The notes beneath the pieces are model-generated. The model had not been told where the DNA came from. It worked only from the letters and a program-made list of their open reading frames with translations, and did not search any database. The position numbers were made by a program, and so were the translations under genes. A stretch of DNA of 62,833 nt, counting the filler, from Diploschistes diacapsis (taxonomy: Eukaryota), in assembly GCA_023645945.1 (NCBI GenBank). It is 13 parts of 13 records of this genome, joined end to end, with 100 filler letters (N's around TTAATTAATTAA, not from the genome) between each part and the next. Parts side by side here need not be neighbours in the genome. Positions count along the whole stretch, not along the records: positions 19,524 to 24,271 come from JALAIB010001656.1; 12 more parts are not named here. One strand, given 5' to 3'. This document shows, in pieces, positions 4,796 to 58,025 of this stretch (positions are counted from its first letter, which is position 1; each line of letters opens with the position of its first letter).

Positions 4796-4895
4796 NNNNN
4801 NNNNNNNNNNNNNNNNNNNNNNNNNNNNNNNNNNNNNNNTTAATTAATTAANNNNNNNNNNNNNNNNNNNNNNNNNNNNNNNNNNNNNNNNNNNN
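4796..4895. other. Artificial contig spacer (N-TTAATTAATTAA-N); also at 9690, 14569, 19424, 24272, 29109, 33936, 38762, 43582, 48399, 53216 and 58026
   Basis: Identical 100-bp spacer with six-frame stop linker, 12 copies. Confidence 0.99.
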
Positions 4896-5096: not shown

Positions 5097-8000
5097 TCAT
5101 GTGCTGATGCCTTGAACTCCCAGGCCAAGACCCGGGCCGTCGGTCTTCACCTTCGACCCTAGAGCCCCTATTACTGGGACGTTGCCGATGCTCTCCTGTC
5201 GCCTCTCGCGGGCCGCTCTGACCGTGCCGTTCTTCCGATCGGCAACCAGCTCTCCCTTTTCCACTTTCTCTTGGATCATCTCGTCAAGCATCCGGCTCAT
5301 TTCATCGATGCTCTTCCGGTTGGGGCCTTTTCCATTCGCGAGGCCGATGCTGTTGGAAGGAGAGGTCCCGGCCGTGGATGCCTTGGCTCCCCCGAGAATC
5401 TCGAACGGCGATCGCTTGTTCGGTAACTCGACCGGCGACAGAGATGTGCTGTTGGTCGTGGTGGTAATGCTGCTGCCGAAGCTTCCTTTTGGCTGGTGCG
5501 TGTTCTCGGAGGATCGGAGGTTGCTGGAAGCGGTAGGCTGATGCACGTCCAACCTGCTCGCAGCGTTCACGGACCGGAATGCGGCGATTGTACGATCGCG
5601 CTCTTCCAGCTTGATGCGTAATTCTGCAATCTCAATATCCTTCTCTTGCAACGCAGTGAGGGAGAAGCCGCCGGAAGTCCGAGAATTAGAGGTACGGCGC
5701 GCTTGAATGAGCCGACGCTCTAATGCCGAGATGTACTTGGTCTTCTCCGTAAGGTCCGATCTGAGCGCACGATTTTGAGCCTCTACCGAGGCCGTCCCGT
5801 CCACATTCTCTTCCCCTTCGTCGCCCACGTTGGCAGCAGGCTCCAAAGAAGCAACGCTCGCTTCGCGTAGAGTTGCAAGCTGGTGTCCTATTGTGGCGGT
5901 CGATGCGCCCGAGGCAGTTCTATGAACTGTCGAGAGACTCGTAGAAGATCGAGCAGAATGCGTGCCCAGACTCGGAAGAAGCGGAGGATGCATGCTCAAA
6001 GAGGAGTACGAACCGCTGGCGTTGACCCCTTGGGATTGGGACGACAGAATCAAGCGGTTCAGGTGCTCGATACGCTCTTTCAGCGCGGTGCGCGCGAGCT
6101 GCAGCTCAAGCATCTGGTCATTGTGTCGAGCCTCGGCATCTTTCTCCAGCTGCTTCTCTTCCTTTTCAAGCTGTAGTTGATTCTGATGCTCGAGCTGCTG
6201 TTTCAAAGTCTGGATCTCTGAGCGATACCTTTCGAGCAACCCGCGCGAGGCCGGATCTGCAGCGACGCCAAGCGCTTCATCGGCCTTCCTCGCATGGCTC
6301 ACGATGTTGTTCTTGGCTCGCGCAGCAAACTTCAAAGTGTTGAGAGTTTCGGCCGTGTGGGTGTTTGCTGTTGCCGCGCTCCCCGCCGAGCCAATCTGGA
6401 TCGTGCACAGGATGCTGATCAACGAGTCTCCCGACAAGGCTTGCTGCAGCAGACGGGTCAGTTTGCTGTCTCTGTACGGTAGATGTCGGCCATCCTTGTC
6501 TGTCGGGTTGCCGTTCTTGTCCTTGCCTCCGGACAGTCGGGCAACAACGGTTCCCAGCGTGAGGAGACTTTTGTTGATATGGGCTCCTTCCTTCCTCCTC
6601 TCCTTGCTGTCGGCTGCTTTCTCCGAACCCGCCAAGTCGATGAGACTGAGCGTGGAGACTCGGACGCCTCCGGGCCCGAGCGCGGCTCGCTTCTCGCTCG
6701 AGGTCTCCGCCCGATCGCGGCTCTCCACAACGATCTTGACCACAGCGTGGCTTCGAGAACTATGGGCATTGAACTGAGTGGTCCCAACGTGCCTGGCCCT
6801 ATCACCCCGCGAAATGACTCGAAGAAGCTGCATCGGGCTTTGCACGATTTCTTCGCGTAATGGCGTGACGTAAACACCTCGTTTGCTATCCTCTCGCAGC
6901 TTGATCTTCTCCGGCTCCGTTCCGTCGGCAGGAAGAGGTGCAAGCAAGTCTCTGACATCTTCGTTGTATATCTCGAGATAACTCGCTCGCAAAAGGAATT
7001 CCCGATGAGGTGTCTCTCGTATGAAAGAAAAAATGTCCGTGATGGCGCGGGGTATCACGCCAGGCGAGGCCGTCGTGCCTTGCATGGAGAAGGTCTTGCC
7101 CGTCCCGGTCATACCGTATGCGAAGACCGTGCCGTGGTATCCTTCCATGACTCGCCTCACAAGCCGCTTGGCCGAAGCATCGTAAACTTTTCCGTTATCA
7201 TCGTGGCTGGCAAACACGTTGTCTGCTCCAATGTCAGTTACCATATTCCTCCAAAAAGGAGGGGGGGGGGGCCGCTTGCTTACCGTAGTAGTAATCGCCC
7301 CCTTCTTTGCCTCGAAAAGCAATCAACGATCGTCGCCCGTCCACCATCCACTCGCCTTCGGATGTCGCATCGCCGCCAGCATCCGGACGGACACGAACAC
7401 CGACCACAACGTTTCCTTTCGCTTCCCTGCCGCTCAGGCTACTCTGCTCGCTACCGTCCTGAGCATCGTCGCGCCCTCTTCGAGGCACTTCGTCCTCCTC
7501 AAACTGCGTTGCTTGCGTCGAATAGGAACCTTGGGCCGAAGAACTTCGGCTGTGGGCAGGTGACGGCAGGTTGAGGAAGCCTCCTCCGGCGCTCGATGAA
7601 GTGGAGACGGCGGAAACCGCGACGCTGCCGCCGCTGCCGTTGAGCAGGCTGGGCGTGCCGGCATAGGCCGAGCCAAGTGCCGGGGATTTGGCCGGCCGCT
7701 TCAACTTCTTTGGCTTTGCGCTGTCTGCACTGCTCACCGGCGTGGTCGGCGTGGCAGACTCAGCCGATGTGCTTCTGAACGAGTCCAAATTCGTTGTGAT
7801 CGGTGGTGACCCCAGCGAGGGTCGTCCACCCGGTTTTCCTATTCGAGAAATTGGATTCGGCGGCGGCTGGGGAAAGGCCGCAATGCTGACGGATCGCCGA
7901 ACGTTCCTGTCGTTGGATGTGTCGCCGACCTGCAGGGCCGCACTCCTCAGGGTCGGAACGGCAGGCGTCGAGGACGTTTGTTGGGCCGGGACATGGAAGG

Positions 8001-9458: not shown

Positions 9459-9789
9459 ACTGGCCCCCCGGGGCAACGTCCAATGGGCGGCCTCGTCTGT
9501 CAAAAGGGCGACTAGGCTCCTTAAGTCATTGGAAGACCAAAAGCAGGCCCAAGAAGCCAACAGTCGCTGCAACGCTGCTGCTGCTGCTGCAACGCTGGCA
9601 AGCCTGCAACAACGCACAAACCGTTGAAGAAATAACCTACCAAACTTAAACCTCTTAGCCTTTTGCCCTTTGATAGGGAAGTTTGAAAANNNNNNNNNNN
9701 NNNNNNNNNNNNNNNNNNNNNNNNNNNNNNNNNTTAATTAATTAANNNNNNNNNNNNNNNNNNNNNNNNNNNNNNNNNNNNNNNNNNNN

Positions 9790-14113: not shown

Positions 14114-14568
14114 TGTCAGTTATATTGGTGGAGAAGAAGGATCGTATTATTCTTTGCAAGAGATGTTTGTAAGCGGATTATATACATTCTGTATGACTAA
14201 TCATGTCCCTTTGCTCTTTCTCACATTCCCCCTAATTCGGTTGTATTGTATCTTCGTATATTCTTTTTAAAAAGTCTGAGATATCCGATGCAGCTTCTTC
14301 TTCGGGGAGCTTCGCCTTAGGCTTAAATCTTAAACGGGTTTTCTTTCTTTTATTTTCTTTTATTTTTATTATTTTCTTATTCTCTTTTATTTTTAGGTTT
14401 TTATAGCCTTTATTATCGAAGTATTTAAATATCGTTTTAACGTTAGAAAGATTCTTTAAGTATATTTAAATAATAATATTTATATTCGGTAATATTGTAA
14501 TACGCAGAACCCAATAAGGGCTACCAGGGGGTATGCCAAGCATATACCAAGGCCCGCTAGCGTGTTCT
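14114..14568 (-). mobile_element. Copia-type LTR element 3' end: LTR 14114-14225, PPT 14226-14233, RIP-mutated internal region to contig end
   Basis: Minus strand reads AGGGGGAA-TGTGAG...AACTGACA (112 bp), highly similar to LTRs at 54510 and 57255. Confidence 0.85.
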
Positions 14569-15757
14569 NNNNNNNNNNNNNNNNNNNNNNNNNNNNNNNN
14601 NNNNNNNNNNNNTTAATTAATTAANNNNNNNNNNNNNNNNNNNNNNNNNNNNNNNNNNNNNNNNNNNNGGAGGAGGGAGGGAGCTTACTGGAGAATTCAC
14701 GGTCCGACATAACGAGATTGTAGGAGTAAAGAGTCACACAATCGTATTCAAGAAGGAATGTTAGCGCTTGAGATTCATCGTTGTTAAGAGATATGGGGGG
14801 GCACCGTAAAGCTGGGGTGCTTGGCAGAACGTCAAGGCGGTGTGTTTTCTGCCACTCCGCTGGTGAGGCTCACTGGGATCCACTAACTAATTACTTTCTA
14901 TTTCGTTTCAAATTTTCTTTTTCCATATTCAGATTTTTACAAAATCCACGGAGCGATAAAGCGATGAAATGCTATTGACGTTTCCAATCCTAGGAGTAGG
15001 TGTTCAAGCTATTTTCCAGCTTCCCTAAACCTTTTCCTTATCGTGATGAACTTCTGTGTCGCCCCTATCAGATCGAGAGCTCAAGCTCTCTTGGTGATTT
15101 ACCTGTCCAAGCCAAACGGACTTTCTGATCCTCAAATATTCCACTCACCGTTTGTTCGAGAAACATGCGCTTTCTGTGCTGACCATTCTTTTCAAGCAGG
15201 TATCGAATTGCCCGTCGAACCTTACAATCGCTTTGCTTGTGGTAAGCCTTACCCACTCTTTGAAGACGCAATTCTATGATGAGCAACAATTTTGTACTAT
15301 CAAATACCGATGTCCAATGACGAACAAAATAATGGTTCGATTACCTGAAACATACCTGGCTGTCCACGGTCCATTAATCCATTAAGATTATAGACTCGCT
15401 AACGAAAGACGTAGCTGATGTCCAGATGGATTATGTAGAATGTCTACATCAGCGATTATGGTAAGCCGACACCCCTTCCTCAAATGCACAGCTCATGATG
15501 TACTCAATATATTCTATGCTAAACCTGACCACTAATGCTGAAAACCTTTCGGGTCTTTTCATCTTTCGTCTGAAGCTATTAAATACTTCCCTTGTGAAAG
15601 AGGTTTTCCGCTGATTGCATGCTAACTATCCATGCCTACAGAATGTTACCATCATCAGTCTTTTCAATAGAAATGAAGAAGTTGCTTATGATCTTCTCTT
15701 CCAAAACATTACCTCCTCTTTTTTGTATCTTGTGAAAAGCAGCTTGTTGACCGATGC

Positions 15758-19378: not shown

Positions 19379-22300
19379 CTGCGGAGAAGGGGCGTGAGCC
19401 ATTTGCCGAAGCTGGTGTGGAAGNNNNNNNNNNNNNNNNNNNNNNNNNNNNNNNNNNNNNNNNNNNNTTAATTAATTAANNNNNNNNNNNNNNNNNNNNN
19501 NNNNNNNNNNNNNNNNNNNNNNNTAATAATTCTAACGAGAACGCATCGTACAAATTTAATATTAATAGTCGAACCATTAAACGATAAAAGTACTTTTAGA
19601 AGAAAGCTCTCGTAATTAACGATAAGAACCATCAAGATTATAAACGATTGGACGAGTACGGAGATTTCGAGTGCAATTACGAAGGATATCGCGACGGGAA
19701 ATACGTTCTATATAATAAATTAATAATCGATATAACCTTCGTACGATATTACGAATACGTTTTATTAAATACATAATATCAGAATCATTATTTTATATAC
19801 GACTATATTAATAAGAACTATAAAACGCATTTCTACAATATAGGGAAAGAAGAGAACCTAAAACCACCCTTTACGAACGGAAAGGACGTTATATTAAAAA
19901 TCTATTTCGCGTACGAAACGTGTAAGAACGGAAGGTACAAACATCTATTATATTTAACATTCACGTTACCGCGAAACTGCCGAGATAATAACTACATAAT
20001 CCCAATATACCACGACTAAAAACTCCGAGACGGCATAACTCAGAAGCTAAAACTAACGGACGAAGACTCAATATACCCAATACACGTTTTATAAAGTTAC
20101 CGCTTCTGTAGGGCTACAAACTATAAATATCATAATAGAGGATTCTCCTACCCTACTAACAAAAACATTATAAAAAAAGCCAAAACTTTTTAGTTATAAG
20201 TCGAACTGAAGAGCTATACGTTATAAATATAAGTATTAACGCGCGGACTCAAATACGGAAAATTTAGACCGATCTCGAAATCGGATCAGATCGACAAACT
20301 ATACGGGTATTAATCGATCCTAATATTACGATAAATATTATCTCAATTACTTATACATAAAAATTAAAAATAAAGAATTACGAATTAAAAAAGAAATATA
20401 ATATCGAAACCGTAATAAAACGTAACGTTATACGAATTATTAAACGTACGTTCCCGTTAATAATCAGAATCTTAAGATATATTAAAAAACTTACCTTCGA
20501 TATAATAAAAATGGCCGTTTACGATATCATCCTCGGAAATCCTTAACTAAATATTTACAACCCGTCAATCAATTTTAAGACACGGACTTTCGATATAAAT
20601 AAATATACGTATATTAATACATCCCGCCCGAATGTAGTCATAACAATTACGGCGGATAAAAAAGAAGTATTATATAATACTCCCCGAAAAAAAATCAAGA
20701 AAAACCTTAACTAACAAATTCGATATCGTGAGATAAAGACACGAATCAACAAGAATATTAATAAAAAAAAAAATAACTACCTTTCAAAAATCCCTAAAAA
20801 ATATTAATAATAACTACACCTCTTTTAAAAAAAGATAGGCTTACGAACGCTACTTAAATACAAACCTTAAAACCATATTATCGAACTTATAGACGAAAAG
20901 ACCCCAAAATTTAGACCACTTTATAAAACATTAGTAATAAAGCTGAAATTCTTTAAACAATATTTCCAAGAAATGCTCGAGAAAGGACACATTCATAAAT
21001 CCAAATTACCAATATTATTTCCAATCATTTTCGTACCGAAACCTAACGGCAGAAAAAGATTTATTCTTCGACCTTATATCGACTTCCGGAAACTTAACGT
21101 TATTACTATAAAAAATCGATATCCTATACCGAACATTCAAGAATTACGAGATCGATTATATAACGTAAAATGATTTACGAAATTAAACTAACGAACAAAC
21201 TTTAATCTTATACGCATAAAAGAAGATAAAGAATAAAAAACGGCATTCAGAACACGTTACGGGTTATTCAAGTATTTAATAATATTTTTTAACTTAACCA
21301 ACGTATTAACTACCGAACAGAAATTTATAAACGATATATTACGCGATATCTTAAACGATTACATGATTTCTTATTTAGACGACATCTTAGTCTATTCTAA
21401 CGAAACACTCGAAAATCATCGATAAAAAATAAAGGAAATGTTTCGACGTTTTGACGAACGCGATCTTCGCTTAAAACCAAAGAAATATAAATTCTATAAA
21501 ACAGAAGTTAACTTCTTAAAACACGTGGTAAAATAATAAAGCGTTAAGATCGATTCAATAAAAATCAGTTTGATCTTAGAATAATTAACCTCGAAGAACG
21601 TGAAAGATATCTAATCCTTTTTAGGATTTATTAATTACAACCGATAATTTATTAAGAACTATTTAAGAAAAATAGAACCATTAATTAGACTTACACGAAA
21701 AGACTTACCTTTTAAATGGATATTAAAATAAGAACAAGCGTTTCGGAAATTTAAAGACTTTACGATCAACGTACCTATCTTAAGATTTTATAATCCAAAC
21801 AAACCGATACGAATCGAAACCGATGTTTTAAAATAAGCTATAACGGTATACCTACTTCAACCAAACGTTAACGGTAAGTAACGGCTAATAACGTGTTATT
21901 CACGAAAGATATTATTAGTAAAATAAAATTACGACATAAGCGATCAAGAATTATTCGCTATAATCGTAACGTTAAACGAATGGTATATCTACGTACACGA
22001 AATAAAGGAAATCGAAATCTATATAGATTATATGAATTTACTAAAGTTTATAACGATAAAAAAACTTAACCCGAGATAGTTTCGATGGTTAGAAATTTTC
22101 GAACGATATCGTTTCACGATTAAACGGATTATAAATAAAGTTAACGAACGGGTTGATGCGTTTAATCGACGATTAAACTATATGGTCAGAAAACCACGAC
22201 AAGCGAAGTTATTTAAGATTAACGATGACAGATTATTAATAACGGATTTTCAAGAATTCATCGCAGTCATGAATGTCCTCGAAGATTAACAAGAAGAATA

Positions 22301-23432
22301 CCCAATAATTAAGAAGAAGTTATATATCCCCGCGGAAAGGATTTAAGATTATATACGACAATACTATGATTTATCGGAATACGGACATAAGGGTATCACG
22401 AATATTATTAAAGTTATTTAACGAAACTATTATTTCGAAGGAATGAAGAAATAAGTTACGGACTTTATTAAATAATGCGAAAGCTGTCAGAAGAATAAGC
22501 ATTCAATATACAAGAAGTACGGCATCATACAAATCATACTTAAACCACAGAAACGATGACAATCAGTTATAATGGATTTTATTACAAAGCTATCAAAGTC
22601 TAGAGATCTAGTGACAGATATAGAATACGACGTTATTTAAGTAATCGTTAATAGGTTTAATAACAAACCAATATGCCTACCGTTCAAAGAAAATTACAAT
22701 ATATAGAAGCTACACGCAATATAAGTCGATAGAATAATAAGACATAACGAGTATTTAGAAGAAATAATTAGTAATCGAGTGAAGGCTAAGAAATCGACAT
22801 TATTAAAAAAAAGATGTCAAGAATACCGATTCATCCACTAAGACAGCACTACGACTTGAAAGAAAGCACTAAGAAAAAACAAGATAAACACAGTTTAGGA
22901 AAGATTCTTAATTAAAAAAGAAAAATAAGGTCTATTTATTCGCTAATAACCTTCGCTCGCTAAGACCCTTTAAGAAGTTTAACAATAAAAAGGTCGAACC
23001 TTTCTTTATAGACGAATAATCAGAAGTAACGGACGGATAATTAAGGATTTTTTACCGACTCGTCCTTCCATTAGATACGAAACTTAAGATACCGATCTTT
23101 CATATATCTAAACTCGAATCAGTATATTTAAATATATTATTCCAGATCACGTTTCATTTCGAATAAAACGAGAAAACCGAGTACGAAATTAAAGAAATCC
23201 TTAACGATAGCTCTCGAGGTTATTTAATTAAGTAGAAAGGATATCTAAACGATTAATATACGTAAGAATTATAACGGATATTAATTAATTATAAGAACGT
23301 ATTAAAGGCTTATCACGATAAAAAGAAGCGAAAAAAAAACAATAGCACCTTTATAAGAAAAAAAGAAAAAAAAAGAAAAAAGGATTAAAAAATCTTCGGT
23401 AGTGTCGTGAAACATTATTAAAGATATTTCAT

Positions 23433-23505
23433 TAATTTAGGCCGGAATCGAACTAGCGACCTCGCGTTAAACGAACACACGTTTTACCGACTAAACTACT
23501 AAATC
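23433..23505 (-). tRNA. tRNA-like gene or pseudogene (73-nt cloverleaf, nominal anticodon GTT, non-canonical C33/T37) inside the Gypsy element
   Basis: GATTTAG TA GTTT AGTCGGTA AAAC G TGTGT TCGTTTA ACGCG AGGTC GCTAG TTCGATT CCGGC CTAAATT A; all four stems form with canonical spacing; A- and B-box-like motifs. Confidence 0.75.
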
Positions 23506-23599
23506 TAATTATAAAAAAAATACATATAAATAAGTTTTTATATATTAATTTAAAAGAAAAGAGTCGTTATATCGATATTTTTTAATTCTTAATTAATTT

Positions 23600-23990
23600 A
23601 AAAAAATGATAGAGCGTTGAAATACCGGAAATCCTAAAGATTACCCGCGAGCACCATACTGTTGTTCAAGTTTTTAGCCGTTTCTGCCTCCTCATCCAAT
23701 TAATTAATAAAATATTTCGTTTGCTTAATAAATTTCTTTTCGATTAGTTTAAAAATCTTCCGGAATCTTTCTATCCGGGTTTTATATTTTATCAGCTAAG
23801 AAAAAAGCTTCTACCTTTTCTTCTCTTCCGACTTTAACCTAGATTCTGCCTAAACACATATCCTGTCCATAACCTTTCAAGATGTCGAGATGTAGTTCTT
23901 CCGACTGAAGCGAACGTACCTTTCGTAACGAGAAGAAATAAATAGTATAATAATACAGCGATATAAGATTAAATAGTAAAAATAAGGAAA
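23600..23990 (-). pseudogene. RIP-mutated antisense ORF in the Gypsy 3' region: Zn-cluster-like Cys motif plus coiled coil; boundaries approximate
   Basis: Reads FPYFYYLILYRCIIILFISSRYERYVRFSRKNYISTS*KVMDR; reverting TAY to TGY and TGA to TGG gives PCxxC-x5-C...SSRCxxCVRxGRxxC...SW; then a charged helical stretch (EKKFIKQTK...LDEEAETAK). Confidence 0.55.
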
Positions 23991-24371
23991 GTTAATAGTT
24001 CTACCTGATTAAAGAATACGATTAATAAATTTATGGTTACGAATAGTTAAAGAAGATATCGTTGTTTTACGATATAAGATTTTTTTTTATTTATTATTTA
24101 TGCTTATTTTTCTGAACTTATCGGGCCGATAAAACTAAAGAAAAAAAATAATATTACGATCCAAGTAACTGGACGTAATTATTTAATAACGTTATAATAT
24201 TAAAGGACATTACCCGACCTATCGTTATATATAACTAGTTATATGATTAATAAATAGTTGCCGATAAATATNNNNNNNNNNNNNNNNNNNNNNNNNNNNN
24301 NNNNNNNNNNNNNNNTTAATTAATTAANNNNNNNNNNNNNNNNNNNNNNNNNNNNNNNNNNNNNNNNNNNN

Positions 24372-38861: not shown

Positions 38862-40142
38862 GTATTAAAAAAAGTATAAAATAACCGAGGAAATAAACCG
38901 ACGAGCGCTGGGAAGGAGTGAAAAGGTATTAAAAGTGGAGCATCCCGACATATTAATTAGCGTGGGTAATTTAGCATCGGTGCTTAAATATTAAAAAAAG
39001 TATAAAGCAGCCGAGAAGATGAACCGACGAGCGTTGGAAGGGAAAGAAAAGGTGCTGGAAATAAAGCATCTTTCGATATTAATTAGCGTTAGTAATTTAG
39101 TATTGGTGTTTTAGTGCTAGAAGAAGTATAAGACAGCCGAGAAGATAAACCGACGAGCGTTAATAGGGAAAGAAAAGGTATTAGAAGTAAAGTATTTTTC
39201 GATATTAATTAGCGTTAATAATTTAATATTAGTATTTTAATATTAAAGGAAGTATAAGATAATCGAAAAGATGAACCGACGAGCGCTAATAAAGAAAGAA
39301 AAGGTATTAGAAGTAAAGTATTTTTCGATATTAATTAACGTTAATAATTTAGTATTAATATTTTAATATTAAAAAAAGTATAAAGCGGCGGAAGAGATAA
39401 ACCGACGAGCGCTGGAAAGGAATAAAAAGATATTAAAAATAGAATATTTCGATATTTTAATTAACGTTAATAATCTAGTATTTATATTTAAATATTAAGG
39501 GAAGTATAAAATAGCCGAGAAGATGAACCGACGAACGCTGGAAGGAAGAAAAAAGATAGTAGAAATAAAACATCCCGATATATTAATTAACGTAAATAAT
39601 TTAATATCGATGCTTAAATATTAAGAGAAGTATAAAATAGTCGAAAAAATGAACCGACGAGCGCTGGAAAGGAGAAAGAAGGTGCTAGAAATAGAGCATC
39701 CCGACACATTAATTAGCGTAAGTAATCTAGCATCGGTGCTTTAAGATCAGGGAAAGTATGAGGCGGCCGAGGAGATGAACCGACGAGCGCTGGTAGGAAA
39801 TAGGAAGTGAGAAGGTGTTAGGAGTGGAGCATCCCGACACATTGACCAGCGTCAATAATCTAGCATTGGTGCTTCAAGCTCAGGGGAAGTATAAGGCGGC
39901 CGAGGAGATGAACCGACGAGCGCTGGTAGGGAGAGAGAAGGTACTGGGAGTGGACCATCCCGACACATTAACCAGCGTTTACTGCCTTGCTCATTTATTC
40001 CACTCAGCAACGATATGATAATGCATCTATACTTTATCTTAGAGCTTCAGCAGGCTTTTTGAAGGCGTTAGGTCCAAAACATCCGAAAACACAGAAATGC
40101 CCCCAGCTTTATACGTCCATAATTCAGAAAATGGAAAGCTAG
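38862..40142 (+). pseudogene. RIP-mutated tandem 42-aa TPR array (kinesin-light-chain-like repeats typical of fungal NLR C-termini)
   Basis: Anchor AACCGACG at 38896, 39022, 39148, 39274, 39400, 39526, 39652, 39778 (126-bp period) and 39911; last unit LGVEHPDTLTSVNNLALVLQAQGKYKAAEEMNRRAL; many stops, two frameshifts. Confidence 0.92.
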
Positions 40143-53315: not shown

Positions 53316-53641
53316 AATCTATCCTTAACAGACGTCTATTATTAAATATCTATCAATCACGTAACTTAGCGTCCGTAATTAACTATATATAAGAAATAAT
53401 TAAAAAATGCCCGACTAACTATAAAGTATTAAATAACCGCTTAATCACCCTAGATCGTAATATTATTCCTTTTCTTTAATCTTATCGACCCGACAAGTTC
53501 CGAAAAATAAATATAAATATTAAATAAAAAAAATCTTAAATCGTAGAACAACGATATCTTTTTCAACTTCTCGTAACTATAAACTCGCTAACCGAATTCT
53601 TCGAATAAATAAAACCGTTAACTTCTTTTATTTCCACTATT
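53316..53641 (-). mobile_element. Fragment (3' UTR, PPT, LTR start) related to the Gypsy element at 19524-24271
   Basis: Reverse complement aligns with ~23975-24165 (AAGATATCGTTGTTxTACGA...AAAGAAAAGGAATAATATTACGATC). Confidence 0.8.
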
Positions 53642-53753
53642 CAGTGTTATGATCTCTATCTCTACAAAGTAGACACGAGGTATTAATTAAGGTGGGTTTG
53701 GTCTCGTTTAGAAGAGGAGTGCAAGCAGGAGAAGAAGATAGAATAGTTATAGG

Positions 53754-54304
53754 TAGGCTGGCCGTTTCGTGCCACGGTCACTGACACGGACACGACAGCT
53801 AAAATTTTAAAATACGGATACTGACATGGACACTACACTGCAGTGAAAGCACGAACACGGACATTATAATTAAAAATTTTAAAATATTGATATTGACACG
53901 GATACTGTATTTCCGTAAATCTATTAAAATATTGCGGTGAATATACCGAAATAACGCAGTGAAATTTTTTTAAAAAAATAAGAGCGTTAGAAATAGGCGT
54001 GATAATTCTAGAATTATTAAAATTAAAAAAATAATTTAAAGTGTTTCGGTGAATGTACGGACACGGATACCGCAATAAAAATTTTTTCGACACGGACATT
54101 AACACGGACATTATATTATAATAAAAGCACGGACACGGATATTATAATTAAAAATTTTAAAACACTGATATTGATACGGACACTGCACTTCCGTGAATCC
54201 ACGGATACGGACACCGCAGCTAAAAAATCTAAAACACGGATACTGATACTGTTAGTGTCCGTGTTACTGACACGGCCGTGTCAGTGTCAGTGACGGCCAG
54301 CCTA
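53754..54304. mobile_element. 551-bp non-autonomous DNA transposon (MITE, hAT-like ends) with subterminal repeats
   Basis: Perfect 12-bp TIR TAGGCTGGCCGT...ACGGCCAGCCTA; many ACACGGA(C/T)AC motifs and a reiterated AAAATTTTAAAA-containing unit; no TSD visible. Confidence 0.75.
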
Positions 54305-54625
54305 ATTGAAAATAACTATAAGTTATCTCTAAATTCCCAAAAAAGAATGGCAAAAAGTTAACTCTAAAAGAACTAGGGTGCTGACACAGAAAAGAAGATA
54401 TTTAATGGTTCTAGGGAATCATTCCAAAAAGGAAATCTAATACCCAAAAGTATCTCAGCAAAGAGCAAAAGCAAAAGCAAAGTACGGCTAGAGCGCCGGG
54501 CTTATAACCTTTCAGTTATATTAATGGAGAAGAAGGATTGTATTGCTCTGCAAGAGATGTCTGTAAGCGGATTATATACATTCTGTATGACTAATCATGT
54601 CCCCCTGCTCCTGCTCCTTCTCACA
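54305..54625 (-). mobile_element. Copia 5' LTR (54510-54625), PBS and leader, truncated by the MITE
   Basis: TGTGAGAAGG...AACTGAAA then GGTTATAAGCCCGGCG; leader matches 57372-57577. Confidence 0.88.
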
Positions 54626-57254
54626 TGAAGTTTTTTAACGATTGTAAATTCTGATTAAGCCGGGCAATAACTTTTCGGGATAGCTTATACTGGCCTGCCA
54701 CGGCTTGAGCAATTGACAGCGTGAACGGATCGACGTGAGCCACTGGTAGTCTTGATAGGACCGATACTGTGGTTTTCGCATTAGTATTGCCTAGCTCCAC
54801 CTGGTGGATTGTGCCTTGCTGAGAAAGGGAAGACAGGCTTCCGTCTCGTATATTTATTGACATATTGAAAAGCCCACCGACTTATCTTATGCAGAGCATT
54901 CAGATGATTGTCAGCTAATACAATACCAAGAAAAGGGTCAATTGCAAGAGAAACGTGGTTTGAATGCATTTTCTTGAAATCTTTCTAAAGTGAGAGTATC
55001 TTCCCAATCATAATAGATAACCCGGACCGAGGAGCTCAAAAATTCTGAAAATCATTCGAATCTCAAGAACTTCTATCATCTGAAGATTTAAACGAGTAGC
55101 AAGAACATATTTTTTTTGTACATCACTAGGAGTTATGATCCCTATGAGGATGATCCTGCGCGCAAGATCACATCCTGCCAGTCACGAACGACCAGGTCGA
55201 ACGCAGATAGATCTCTTTATACACAATCTATCGATATATCCGATTGTTAGATATCAAATTGAAAAGGAAAAATAGTACAAGTCCATACCACGCGCAGAGC
55301 TACTTACTCAGTACTGTCTATAGCCAGGCCGTGGGCACTGCCGAAAGGGCACACTACATCCACAGCCCCATATATCAACGAAAATTATTCAGACCAGATA
55401 GCTGCTTGCAGACGAATCAGAATCCATTTTGAGTCTATTGCCCCCGTAACGGTGATGGCTGCTTCACCAGAACCTACAATAGGACGGTCGCTGTTATCAG
55501 AATCAAGCAGCCCTCAGGTCTTTGGACACTACACCATACTGGACCTCGAGGCCCTCAAACGTTGTGAGTGAGATGTTTCTCATTTCAGCTGTCTGCTCCC
55601 GAGAATTTACCAGCCTTTTGTGTATTAGTGGAAAATACAATTGGCTCCGAAGCCCAGCTCAGGAGAATATTTACAGAGTGACGTACTGTAAGCTCGATTT
55701 TGATGAGGATTTTAGATCACCTAAAGGGATAAACTTTGGTGACAGACCTGTGGGACGTAGTCATATGCTTCCCCTCAAATCCATCATTTCCCCCTGGCCC
55801 TGACATCTCTTGTTCATCCTTTACCATCAAATCCAGTGAGTCCTGAATTCCCAGGACCTCGCTTCGAAGGTAGCGCGCCTACTTTCTTTGATACACCCCG
55901 TAATCATGGCTCTTCTATTCCCCCCCCCCCAATCTAGAGTGGTCCAGAAGCTTGCTTGCTGGCTTTTTAGGCACTGGAAGGGTCCCTTGTATAACAGCTG
56001 GCAGTTACAACAGACTCGGGCCTGGCATGACCAAAGAAGCATATTGACACCACACGACCTAGATCTCGGCTTCTATGAGGAAATCCCACCCGTGAAGTAT
56101 GGCATCGTAGAGCGGGACCATATCCACAACACCAATATCAAGGCACTAGTAACTGAACTCGCAGCACATCCTGGCCCGTCTCCCTATGTCATGCCTCCTC
56201 CAACCACAATTTACAATCGTCGGGCATTTCAACTATTGTAGCCAGTCATATTTCTGGTATATCGGGCACTGCGGGAGGATAAGTCAGCGCCCCTGGTACT
56301 TGCAGACATCGAAGACAAATAGGAAGCGAAACATGTAAGTTTTTCTGATGAGGTGAAGGGGAGGCAGGGGGGGTGGGAGAGGAAAGAGAGGGTGGCGCTA
56401 GTGCAATGAGATAAACGGACAGGTTGTGAAGGGAATTATTAGAGATAGGGGCTATGGTGCATTCGGTGGGAGAATTCTAGGCTTTTACGAGAGTTACGGC
56501 AATCTTGTCCAAGTCAATTAACAACCTAAAGTATATTCGCCCTGGCAGTTGCAAAAAGAAGTGTATGGCTTTCCCCGACTCCAACTCCTCAATATCTACC
56601 TATATGTACACAAAATACAGCCACTACTATCACATACGGCCACAGGCTACAGAGAACGAGGTATCCCGTCCGCTCTGCCAATCTAAGCTGTAGACCGGCG
56701 AAGTAGTACTGGAGTGGGTGACCATCTGGGAATTCTCGCTGCTGTATGTTTTTGACTCTTTATTACTTTTTTTTGGTTTTCTGGAGACAGACCTACATCA
56801 ATCCGAAGTTGGGACGTGGTATGATGCCTAAATGAAAGCGGAACGGGAATCGAGCCCTAACTTGTTCACGTGACAATGACTACTATTATTAGTTCGGAAT
56901 TTTTGGCCTTCGGCTTCTCACTCGTGCTACTTCAGAGTGTTGATAGCGAAGAGGCTACTCTTGATGGCCGGTCTTGTTGCGAATCTCGCATGTCAGTTCT
57001 CACGCGGCCGGTCGCCGCGACGTTAGGTTGCCCTTTACCTGAGTTTTCTATGGGGGAACATAATGGGAGGCTTCTTTTCGTGATGGATGAGGAGGGATTG
57101 GATTGGCCAGTAGGGATAGTGGAGATGGTAAAGGGGAGACAAATCAGGAGTCGGGACAGAAGAACAGGAGGCAAGTGGGTTGTGTGACGAGGTGGAAGTG
57201 GGCTGCTGACCCCAGAGTGGGATGGGGTTGTCACACGTTCAGTAGGGTCTTATA

Positions 57255-58025
57255 TGTGAGAAGGAGAAGGAGCGGAGGACATGATTAGTCATGCAGAATG
57301 TATATAATCCGCTTACAGACATCTCTTGCAGAGAAATACAATCCTTCTTCTCAATCAAGATATAACTTATAGGTTATGAGCCCGGCGTTCTAGCCGTACT
57401 TTGCTTTTGCTTTTGCTCTTTGCTGAGATACTTTTGGGTACTAGATTTCCTTTTTTGAAATGATTCCCTAGAACCACCAAGTATTCTCTTCTCTGTGCCA
57501 GCACCCTAGTTCTTTTAGAGCTAACTTTCTGCCACTCTTCTTTGAGAACTTAAAGATAACCTATAGCCACTTTTAATAAACCCATCGAGGACAGGATATC
57601 TGTCACAAGAATAAGTAACGTCCCTCGAATCAATTTTAAGATCGATAATCTTCCGAAATTATCGAGCCGAAATAACGATTACGTCACGTGAAAGAACGCT
57701 TAATTAATAGCATTCTTTTATTTAAAGTTAAAGAATATTATCGAAAATAAAGCTATATCGAAAATATTATCCCGAAGATTTAAAACTTATGTTCTATTAA
57801 TATAATCGATAGAATCAAACTTTATCGGATTTATTTCTAAATTTAATAATCTAATAGCGGCTTAAATAAATCTTCGAGATAAATACGATCGTGATACCGA
57901 AATAAGCAGTATTTATCTATTTAAAGCAATCATAGAATTGAAAATGGTATCTAATGGACCCGTTAAGGATTATATAGATACCTTTTATTTAATCTGGCAG
58001 CGAATGATTTCACGGTATTATTCAT
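57255..58025 (+). mobile_element. Copia 5' LTR (57255-57371), PBS (57372-57383) and RIP-mutated gag start
   Basis: TGTGAGAAGG LTR; GGTTATGAGCCC PBS of Ty5/copia type; KIDNLPKLSSRNNDYVT*K resembles the copia gag N-terminal motif. Confidence 0.88.

Follow-up and report, generated by a model that had tools for sequence, protein, structure and literature searches.

A tRNA-like cloverleaf carried in antisense in the 3' region of a RIP-mutated fungal chromovirus family

A complete 73-nt tRNA-like cloverleaf lies in antisense within a Ty3/Gypsy chromovirus copy, a long terminal repeat (LTR) retrotransposon whose pol ends in a chromodomain, in a 62,833-base stretch of DNA from the Diploschistes diacapsis assembly GCA_023645945.1 (hereafter the window). 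The copy occupies the fifth of the 13 contigs that make up the window, is marked by repeat-induced point mutation (RIP), and carries the cloverleaf between the end of pol and what we read as its 3' LTR, in a stretch that at least three diverged contigs of a public sequencing run also cross. We give somewhat better than even odds (a probability of about 0.55) to the reading that this is a tRNA-derived module, captured in one lineage, co-amplified as an antisense passenger unimportant to the element, and now dead.

Results

The window holds a single tRNA-like cloverleaf, which is unlikely to decode

23433..23505, minus strand: 73-nt tRNA-like cloverleaf (ARAGORN; Rfam RF00005), with a non-canonical anticodon loop

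The original prediction, made from the sequence alone, of a 73-nt minus-strand cloverleaf was borne out by ARAGORN, for which it is the sole tRNA in the whole window, and by Rfam, whose family RF00005 matched identical coordinates over model positions 1-71 of 71. The covariance-model score, which had been named as one check to make, was 46.1 bits, over a gathering score of 29, with an E-value of 1.2e-6 (62.8-kb window against all 4227 Rfam families), and no second tRNA-like match was present in the window at Rfam E-values up to 1. None of 300 dinucleotide-preserving shuffles of the 4748-nt contig yielded an ARAGORN tRNA. Arms and loops in the Rfam alignment are those originally described: an acceptor stem of 7 bp, a D stem of 4 bp with loop AGTCGGTA, an anticodon stem of 5 bp with loop UCGUUUA, the variable loop AGGUC, and a T stem of 5 bp with loop UUCGAUU (TTCGATT in the DNA), which is of the elongator type. 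The only unpaired stem position is A52xC62 in the T stem, and four pairs are wobbles (G1.U72, U27.G43, U29.G41 and U51.G63); the mismatch and all four wobbles are explicable by C>T or G>A changes, as had been claimed for the stem mismatches.

In a tRNA that decodes, the anticodon loop has seven members, among them U33 and a purine in position 37. In the Rfam register this loop has C33 and U37, in agreement with the earlier observation that both U33 and purine 37 are missing, while ARAGORN calls Thr(CGU) through a one-base register shift that supplies U33, retains U37 and incurs a G.A stem mismatch. Position 37 is thus a pyrimidine in either register, and U33 is nowhere combined with a purine at 37. 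Since such a pyrimidine is not derivable from a purine by RIP transitions, decoding by the tRNA-like module is unlikely, and the doubt first raised about it holds in both registers; RIP makes transitions only, so either the module was no canonical decoder before RIP or another mutation hit it.

Relative to the consensus of an internal tRNA-type promoter, the B box GTTCGATTCC is unchanged and the A box TAGTTTAGTCGG differs by a single C>T. On the tRNA strand, the nearest run of at least four T is a T6 located 41-46 nt downstream, which is farther than usual for a terminator, and it overlaps the pol stop TAA (23386..23388).

In a metagenome scan with a degenerate (purine/pyrimidine) pattern of the tRNA 3' half, 22 loci matched, 19 with tRNA-Phe genes and 3 without a tRNA, and most of the 19 were Glu-Asp-Phe clusters of bacterial type. 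As these tRNA-Phe matches are an effect of the degenerate pattern, they are uninformative on the origin of the tRNA; a longer degenerate tRNA pattern had no match in the viral_contigs or genome_contigs collections. Separately, an AT-rich hairpin at 23565-23616 (minus strand), 60 nt upstream of the tRNA gene, matched the K10 localisation element at 27.1 bits (gathering score 43), most likely by chance in AT-rich DNA.

The carrier is a dead, 5'-truncated fungal chromovirus copy

The 13 pieces of the window decrease strictly in size from 4795 to 4708 bp and are parted by 12 linkers of the form N44-TTAATTAATTAA-N44 (4796-4895, 9690-9789, 14569-14668, 19424-19523, 24272-24371 and seven more), from which it follows that small unplaced contigs were concatenated. 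Any feature seeming to cross a linker is therefore a concatenation artefact, and what lies inside the element was judged only within 19524..24271.

19424..19523: assembly linker N44-TTAATTAATTAA-N44, parting the previous contig from the tRNA contig (N runs read)
19524..24271, plus strand: tRNA-bearing contig, fifth piece, 4748 bp; RIP-mutated, 5'-truncated Ty3/Gypsy chromovirus copy
20301..20591, plus strand: retroviral-type aspartic protease, weak (PF08284 RVP_2, E 0.0072, below cut-off; frame +1 residues 260-356)
21033..21518, plus strand: reverse transcriptase (PF00078 RVT_1, E 6.8e-19; residues 32-193 of the piece from 20940)
21792..22109, plus strand: RNase H (PF17917 RT_RNaseH, E 2.8e-20; frame +1 residues 757-862)
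22326..22505, plus strand: integrase zinc-binding H2C2 (PF17921 Integrase_H2C2, E 1.2e-13)
22954..23178, plus strand: integrase C-terminal SH3-like region (frame +2; BLASTP to residues 978-1052 of homologue P0003, within an alignment of E 1e-27)
23179..23313, plus strand: chromodomain (frame +2; aligned to the PF00385-bearing stretch of homologue P0003)
23386..23388, plus strand: TAA, first in-frame stop past the chromodomain and a lysine-rich tail (translation)

By Pfam and BLASTP, the plus strand of the contig encodes protease, reverse transcriptase, RNase H, integrase and then a chromodomain, in the order of a Ty3/Gypsy chromovirus. The last 120 pol residues align to residues 978-1098 of P0003 (BLASTP, E 1e-27), and the integrase C-terminal region also matched SH3_Tf2-1 (PF24626) at E 0.0055, below cut-off. 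The tryptophan codons of the chromodomain are now stops, with X facing W in the KWKGY and TWE motifs of P0003, and the Pfam Chromo model had no match on the X-containing translation of the chromodomain region. A protein search scored 8000 candidates and gave 4713 homologues with a best identity of 48%; a chromodomain is present in most of the homologues listed, and those with a name, the CfT-1 reverse transcriptase among them, are largely from fungi.

The contig covers the 3' two-thirds of the element, starting in a partial gag/protease and breaking off 326 nt into the 3' LTR, and contains neither a 5' LTR nor a primer-binding site (PBS). Its GC content is 29.3%, compared with 36-56% in the other 12 pieces, and its RIP-type dinucleotide indices are 1.10 for TpA/ApT and 0.49 for (CpA+TpG)/(ApC+GpT); a mitochondrial origin of this AT-rich contig was ruled out, as it encodes a Gypsy pol. 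The integrase core is shortened at the joint 22777/22802, where 24 letters here stand against 215 in another copy from the public run, so this copy is without about 190 nt of integrase core. Because of this deletion and the stops throughout pol, the carrier copy is dead; it is a 5'-truncated copy of a fungal chromovirus.

The cloverleaf is located between the end of pol and the 3' LTR

23506..23929: internal non-coding stretch, with no supported open reading frame (ORF) on either strand
23930..23945, plus strand: purine-rich run GAGAAGAAATAAATAG, likely the polypurine tract, directly preceding the LTR start in the alignment
23946..24271, plus strand: 5' part of the 3' LTR, ended by the contig end (aligned to reversed 53651..53330)
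53330..53651, minus strand: second copy of the LTR start, solo or 5' LTR, on another contig; fixes the LTR boundary

The LTR boundary was set by a second copy on another contig of the window, whose match to 23946-24271 is 80% identical over 204 nt in plain letters and 92.6% identical over 283 nt when recoded as purine/pyrimidine. The similarity starts sharply at 23946, and the sequence upstream of the other copy is unrelated; the LTR begins with TG in that copy (TGTAGAG) and with TA here (TATAATA). Depth of the public contigs climbs about four-fold from 23976 onward. Our reading is that the 3' LTR starts at 23946, with the polypurine tract just ahead of it. Searches of the window for further copies, by BLAST in plain and in purine/pyrimidine-recoded form and by tblastx, gave only the LTR piece common with contig 53316-58025, the short-word recoded search being mostly noise.

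The order on the plus strand is thus chromodomain, lysine-rich tail and stop, a 44-nt spacer, the tRNA (in reverse), 424 nt, the purine run and the LTR. With the LTR starting at 23946 right after the purine run, the tRNA, whose end is 441 nt from that start, is internal to the element, and the originally proposed place between the chromodomain (23179-23313) and the polypurine tract (before 23946) stands. For this clade, 3' internal regions of several hundred nt are normal: in L023, a CfT-1-like relative in which both LTRs are present, the pol stop at 6057 and the 3' LTR start at 6652 are about 600 nt apart.

Two possible origins of the tRNA were considered and rejected. A tRNA-derived short interspersed nuclear element (SINE) has no space for a body or an A tail, because on its own strand the tRNA is followed after 44 nt by the pol stop, and the sequence beyond that stop is T-rich. 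Read-through of the primer tRNA during plus-strand strong-stop synthesis fits the orientation, but the adjoining upstream LTR and the CCA that it leads one to expect are both missing. The best candidate for a target-site duplication around the tRNA is a repeat matching at 8 of 9 positions, a level that 82 of 613 control positions in this contig also reach, so it does not exceed background. The secondary insertion that the original prediction had held up against itself, marked by target-site duplications or a SINE body, thus left neither a significant duplication nor a body. Like tRNA-derived SINEs, the module is tRNA-like, dispersed and present in multiple copies, has A and B boxes, and is degenerate in its anticodon loop; unlike them, it has no body, A-rich tail or significant target-site duplication, and moves within a Gypsy element.

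Diverged copies of the family carry the tRNA stretch

In a public DNA run labelled lichen metagenome (X1), 75% of the sampled words of the region were present, and 9581 of its contigs were placed on contig 19524..24271 at 80% likeness. They differ at 1494 transition places and 107 transversion places, an excess that is the pattern of RIP over a high-copy family. Two further runs of the same study (X2, X3) had next to no contigs placed on the region. Three of the placed contigs span the tRNA as follows.

22986-23638, then 23815-23939: record 4, with 100 other letters (and 18 more in the second part) and 12 gap letters
23012-23689: record 5, with 110 other letters and 14 gap letters
23012-23544: record 6, with 86 other letters and 2 gap letters

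At least three diverged contigs therefore cross the tRNA colinearly with sequence on both sides and with small indels only. Record and reference spans differ by at most 12 nt, so none of records 4-6 is without the 73 nt, and record 4 extends the colinearity of the stretch 23506..23929 in another copy up to 23939. The tRNA bins have depths of 204 and 182, comparable with the 241 and 385 of the adjoining bins, and no joint bypassing 23433-23505 is found among the joints listed. At 23570-23621, four contigs making up 142 of the 147.5 summed depth differ from this copy, so most of the depth there comes from other copies. By these alignments, the tRNA is part of the repeat unit. Confinement to a single copy, which the original prediction had named as a finding that would speak against it, is not what the run contains.

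These copies bear directly on a contrary explanation, in which the tRNA is not truly part of the element, being either a genomic tRNA gene caught between a truncated element and an unrelated LTR or the product of a chimeric assembly. The contig is short, unplaced and broken at repeats; some Ty3/Gypsy elements reportedly insert beside tRNA genes, and RIP can leak into adjoining unique DNA, all of which would suit such an arrangement. Against it, three independent diverged contigs keep the same order of pol end, tRNA and downstream sequence, one of them to 6 nt before the LTR start; the purine run adjoins an LTR oriented as pol; and the 44 nt from pol stop to tRNA leave no space for an LTR between. 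The colinear copies largely refute this explanation, and we regard it as very improbable.

Distant relatives are without the tRNA

To place the module within the clade, 18 homologues were aligned and the alignment was used to fetch 20 loci from IMG/VR and 76 loci from contigs of prokaryote assemblies, 28 of the 96 having an integrase C-terminus and chromodomain end with at least 200 nt downstream. ARAGORN found a tRNA in 0 of the 96 related loci. Rfam at gathering score found none in two sets of these loci (0/20 and 0/17), and at E-values up to 1 none in 15 loci comprising the pol C-terminus and downstream sequence, best pol matches included. The tRNA is therefore not an old, clade-wide part of these elements, which argues for a lineage-specific acquisition and against a functional component of long standing in chromoviruses. 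The suggested check of whether copies and relatives keep it gave a split outcome: the copies of the public run retain the stretch, as judged from their spans, and the distant relatives (0/96) do not have it.

Among known types close to the carrier, the CfT-1-type fungal chromoviruses (the 'Cladosporium fulvum T-1 virus' reverse transcriptase, P0052, and locus L023) have the same domain order at about 39% identity to its RIP-mutated pol; unlike the carrier, L023 has no tRNA-like match even at Rfam E-values up to 1. Between its pol stop and 3' LTR, L023 has two overlapping antisense ORFs, 5915-6295 and 6157-6621 (both minus strand; 126 and 154 aa), which look like one cysteine-rich, coiled-coil frame split by a frameshift; no homologue of them was found in contig 19524..24271 or in the other 95 loci.

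The original prediction had also suggested a 3'-processing role for an antisense ORF upstream; such an ORF, between LTR and tRNA, would be freed by RNase P cleavage at the tRNA. The tRNA does lie on the antisense strand, downstream of the 424 nt of internal sequence, and L023 has antisense ORFs in the equivalent region. Stop densities between tRNA and purine run (23506-23945), however, range over 0.041-0.096 in the six frames with none outlying, the lowest belonging to a sense frame (for comparison, the true reverse transcriptase frame has 0.037 and its non-coding frames 0.060-0.106), Pfam had no match there, and the L023 ORFs are without counterpart as stated. This part of the prediction found no support, and we consider it extremely improbable.

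Two further observations concern the fetched loci themselves. The 76 loci from prokaryote assemblies (L043-L118) have eukaryotic Ty3/Gypsy pol in assemblies labelled bacteria or archaea, several of them on 35-226 kb contigs from metagenome-assembled genomes labelled Saprospiraceae, Cyclobacteriaceae or Rickettsiales; these are evidently eukaryotic contigs binned into prokaryote genomes. Eight IMG/VR contigs (L024, L027, L031, L032, L035, L036, L041 and L042) end in direct repeats of 102-156 nt that are 100% identical, the pattern expected of an LTR element assembled as a false circle.

Other features of the window

Another contig of the window has a full 5S rRNA gene (56632-56750, plus strand; 82.4 bits) flanked by inverted arms at 54316-54626 and 57254-57566, 311 nt each and 90% identical, and a 101-nt piece at 14116-14216, on a different contig, is 90% identical to these arms; the 5S rRNA gene may lie in or beside another repeat. 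The contig with this gene opens with the Gypsy LTR copy described above. A tandem array at 38863-39978, with a period of about 126 nt and copies 73-81% alike, opens a contig of 42.6% GC.

Discussion

A passenger or a functional module

In the reading that we favour, an ancestor of the chromovirus family would have captured a host tRNA gene or its RNA polymerase III (Pol III) transcript, and the module would have settled in the internal 3' untranslated region (UTR) and been copied along with the element. The processing of tRNAs by RNase P and RNase Z is established. A captured tRNA would be expected to last only in antisense, since in the sense orientation its fold, as part of the genomic RNA, would be cut out by these enzymes. 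While intact, the A and B boxes would have given each copy a potential TFIIIC/Pol III site, and an antisense transcript would stop at the T6 run overlapping the pol stop; the element itself would be independent of the module, a passenger.

Several points weigh against this reading. A passenger is the default reading rather than a demonstrated one. The fetched relatives are distant, the best having about 39% amino-acid identity to the RIP-mutated pol, and their 0/96 is silent on copies of the same family in sister species. Records 4-6 are judged by their spans and difference counts, so that a functional role of the module keeps some probability. Moreover, X1 may be the window's own sample and then shows several copies, not several genomes; and the joints considered are those listed, most of the 1601 differing places lying outside the listing.

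The broader form of a functional role, in which an autonomous chromovirus family domesticated a whole tRNA gene as a 3' UTR cis-element, be it a TFIIIC/Pol III barrier or a tRNA docking site, is a tentative proposal that we hold to be unlikely.

In its first form, which we find distinctly unlikely, the module would be a functional Pol III/TFIIIC site acting as a chromatin barrier or positioning signal, or the source of an antisense Pol III RNA regulating the element; as a barrier, TFIIIC binding would keep copies that landed in heterochromatin through chromodomain targeting transcribable. Next to a stop-filled pol, the B-box core GTTCGATTCC is unaltered and a single C>T marks the A box; the module is present in several copies, and a T6 run follows it at 41-46 nt on its own strand. 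In many fungi, RIP tends to spare CpG contexts. The surviving C and G of the module are mostly in such contexts, so survival of the box bases need not reflect selection, and related elements do without the module (0/96). Dependence of LTR retrotransposons on captured Pol III promoters has precedents in Cassandra, Helenus and Ajax (PMC10886601), but those promoters sit in the LTR, in sense, and drive the element, whereas here the module is internal and antisense.

In its second form, which we take to be quite improbable, the full tRNA complement that the genomic RNA carries would act as the 3' half, in enlarged form, of a bipartite PBS, bridging the RNA ends via the primer tRNA. Antisense is the orientation in which the genomic RNA is complementary to a tRNA, the module is located in the 3' untranslated part of the element, and Ty3 offers the precedent of a 5'-3' bipartite PBS (PMC5371799). 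The Ty3 site, however, is short, partial and in U3, whereas here a whole tRNA precedes the LTR by 441 nt; its T loop (TTCGATT) is of elongator type, as opposed to the initiator tRNA-Met that the same source gives for yeast elements (PMC5371799); pairing would be imperfect if the odd anticodon loop differs from that of the cellular tRNA; and no such block is present in relatives (15 loci, Rfam E-values up to 1).

Relation to known systems

Cassandra and Ajax, derived from 5S rRNA, and Helenus, derived from tRNA, have been grouped as 'TRIMp3' LTR retrotransposons (Kojima 2024, PMC10886601). These are miniature elements of 311-1263 bp, non-autonomous, whose LTRs contain the small-RNA part in sense, where it presumably drives their own transcription; fungal TRIMp3 occur in Pucciniales and some Agaricomycetes and are apparently Copia-linked, and 'not a few' Repbase LTRs are said to hold tRNA-like parts (PMC10886601). 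The present family resembles TRIMp3, so described, in that an LTR retrotransposon co-amplifies a sequence derived from a Pol III small RNA, with promoter boxes still recognisable and a working tRNA unlikely, and in that fungal cases exist. Unlike TRIMp3, the carrier encodes reverse transcriptase, RNase H and integrase in a Gypsy pol, and its tRNA is internal, antisense and 441 nt before the LTR; the host, with a RIP-active ascomycete-type genome, also differs from the fungal hosts given there. Judged by that account, the family has neither of the two defining features of TRIMp3, a miniature without pol and a small-RNA part in the LTR, and the common principle is all that is shared.

In Ty3, the 3' part of the bipartite PBS lies in U3 and pairs with initiator tRNA-Met along its T and D arms (PMC5371799). 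The carrier is like Ty3, as there portrayed, in that a Ty3/Gypsy genomic RNA would have a complement of a cellular tRNA near its 3' end beyond the ordinary PBS, and unlike it in that a full-length, elongator-type tRNA complement upstream of the purine run takes the place of short U3 stretches.

The open-access literature searched contained no description of an autonomous Gypsy element that carries a tRNA internally. Pol III gene pieces in LTR retrotransposons are known only from miniature, non-autonomous forms, within LTRs, and a protein-coding Gypsy family with a whole internal antisense tRNA cloverleaf widens that picture; should the unlikely domestication of a tRNA gene prove true, it would be the first autonomous counterpart of the Cassandra/Helenus-type, Pol III-gene-bearing LTR elements. 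Each copy of the element adds a tRNA-like match, and retrotransposon copies can thereby inflate the number of tRNA genes counted in such genomes. Intact copies, if they exist in the source fungus or its relatives, would allow a test of whether a retroelement brings a TFIIIC site into heterochromatin, and of whether the extended 3' tRNA pairing known from Ty3 occurs more widely.

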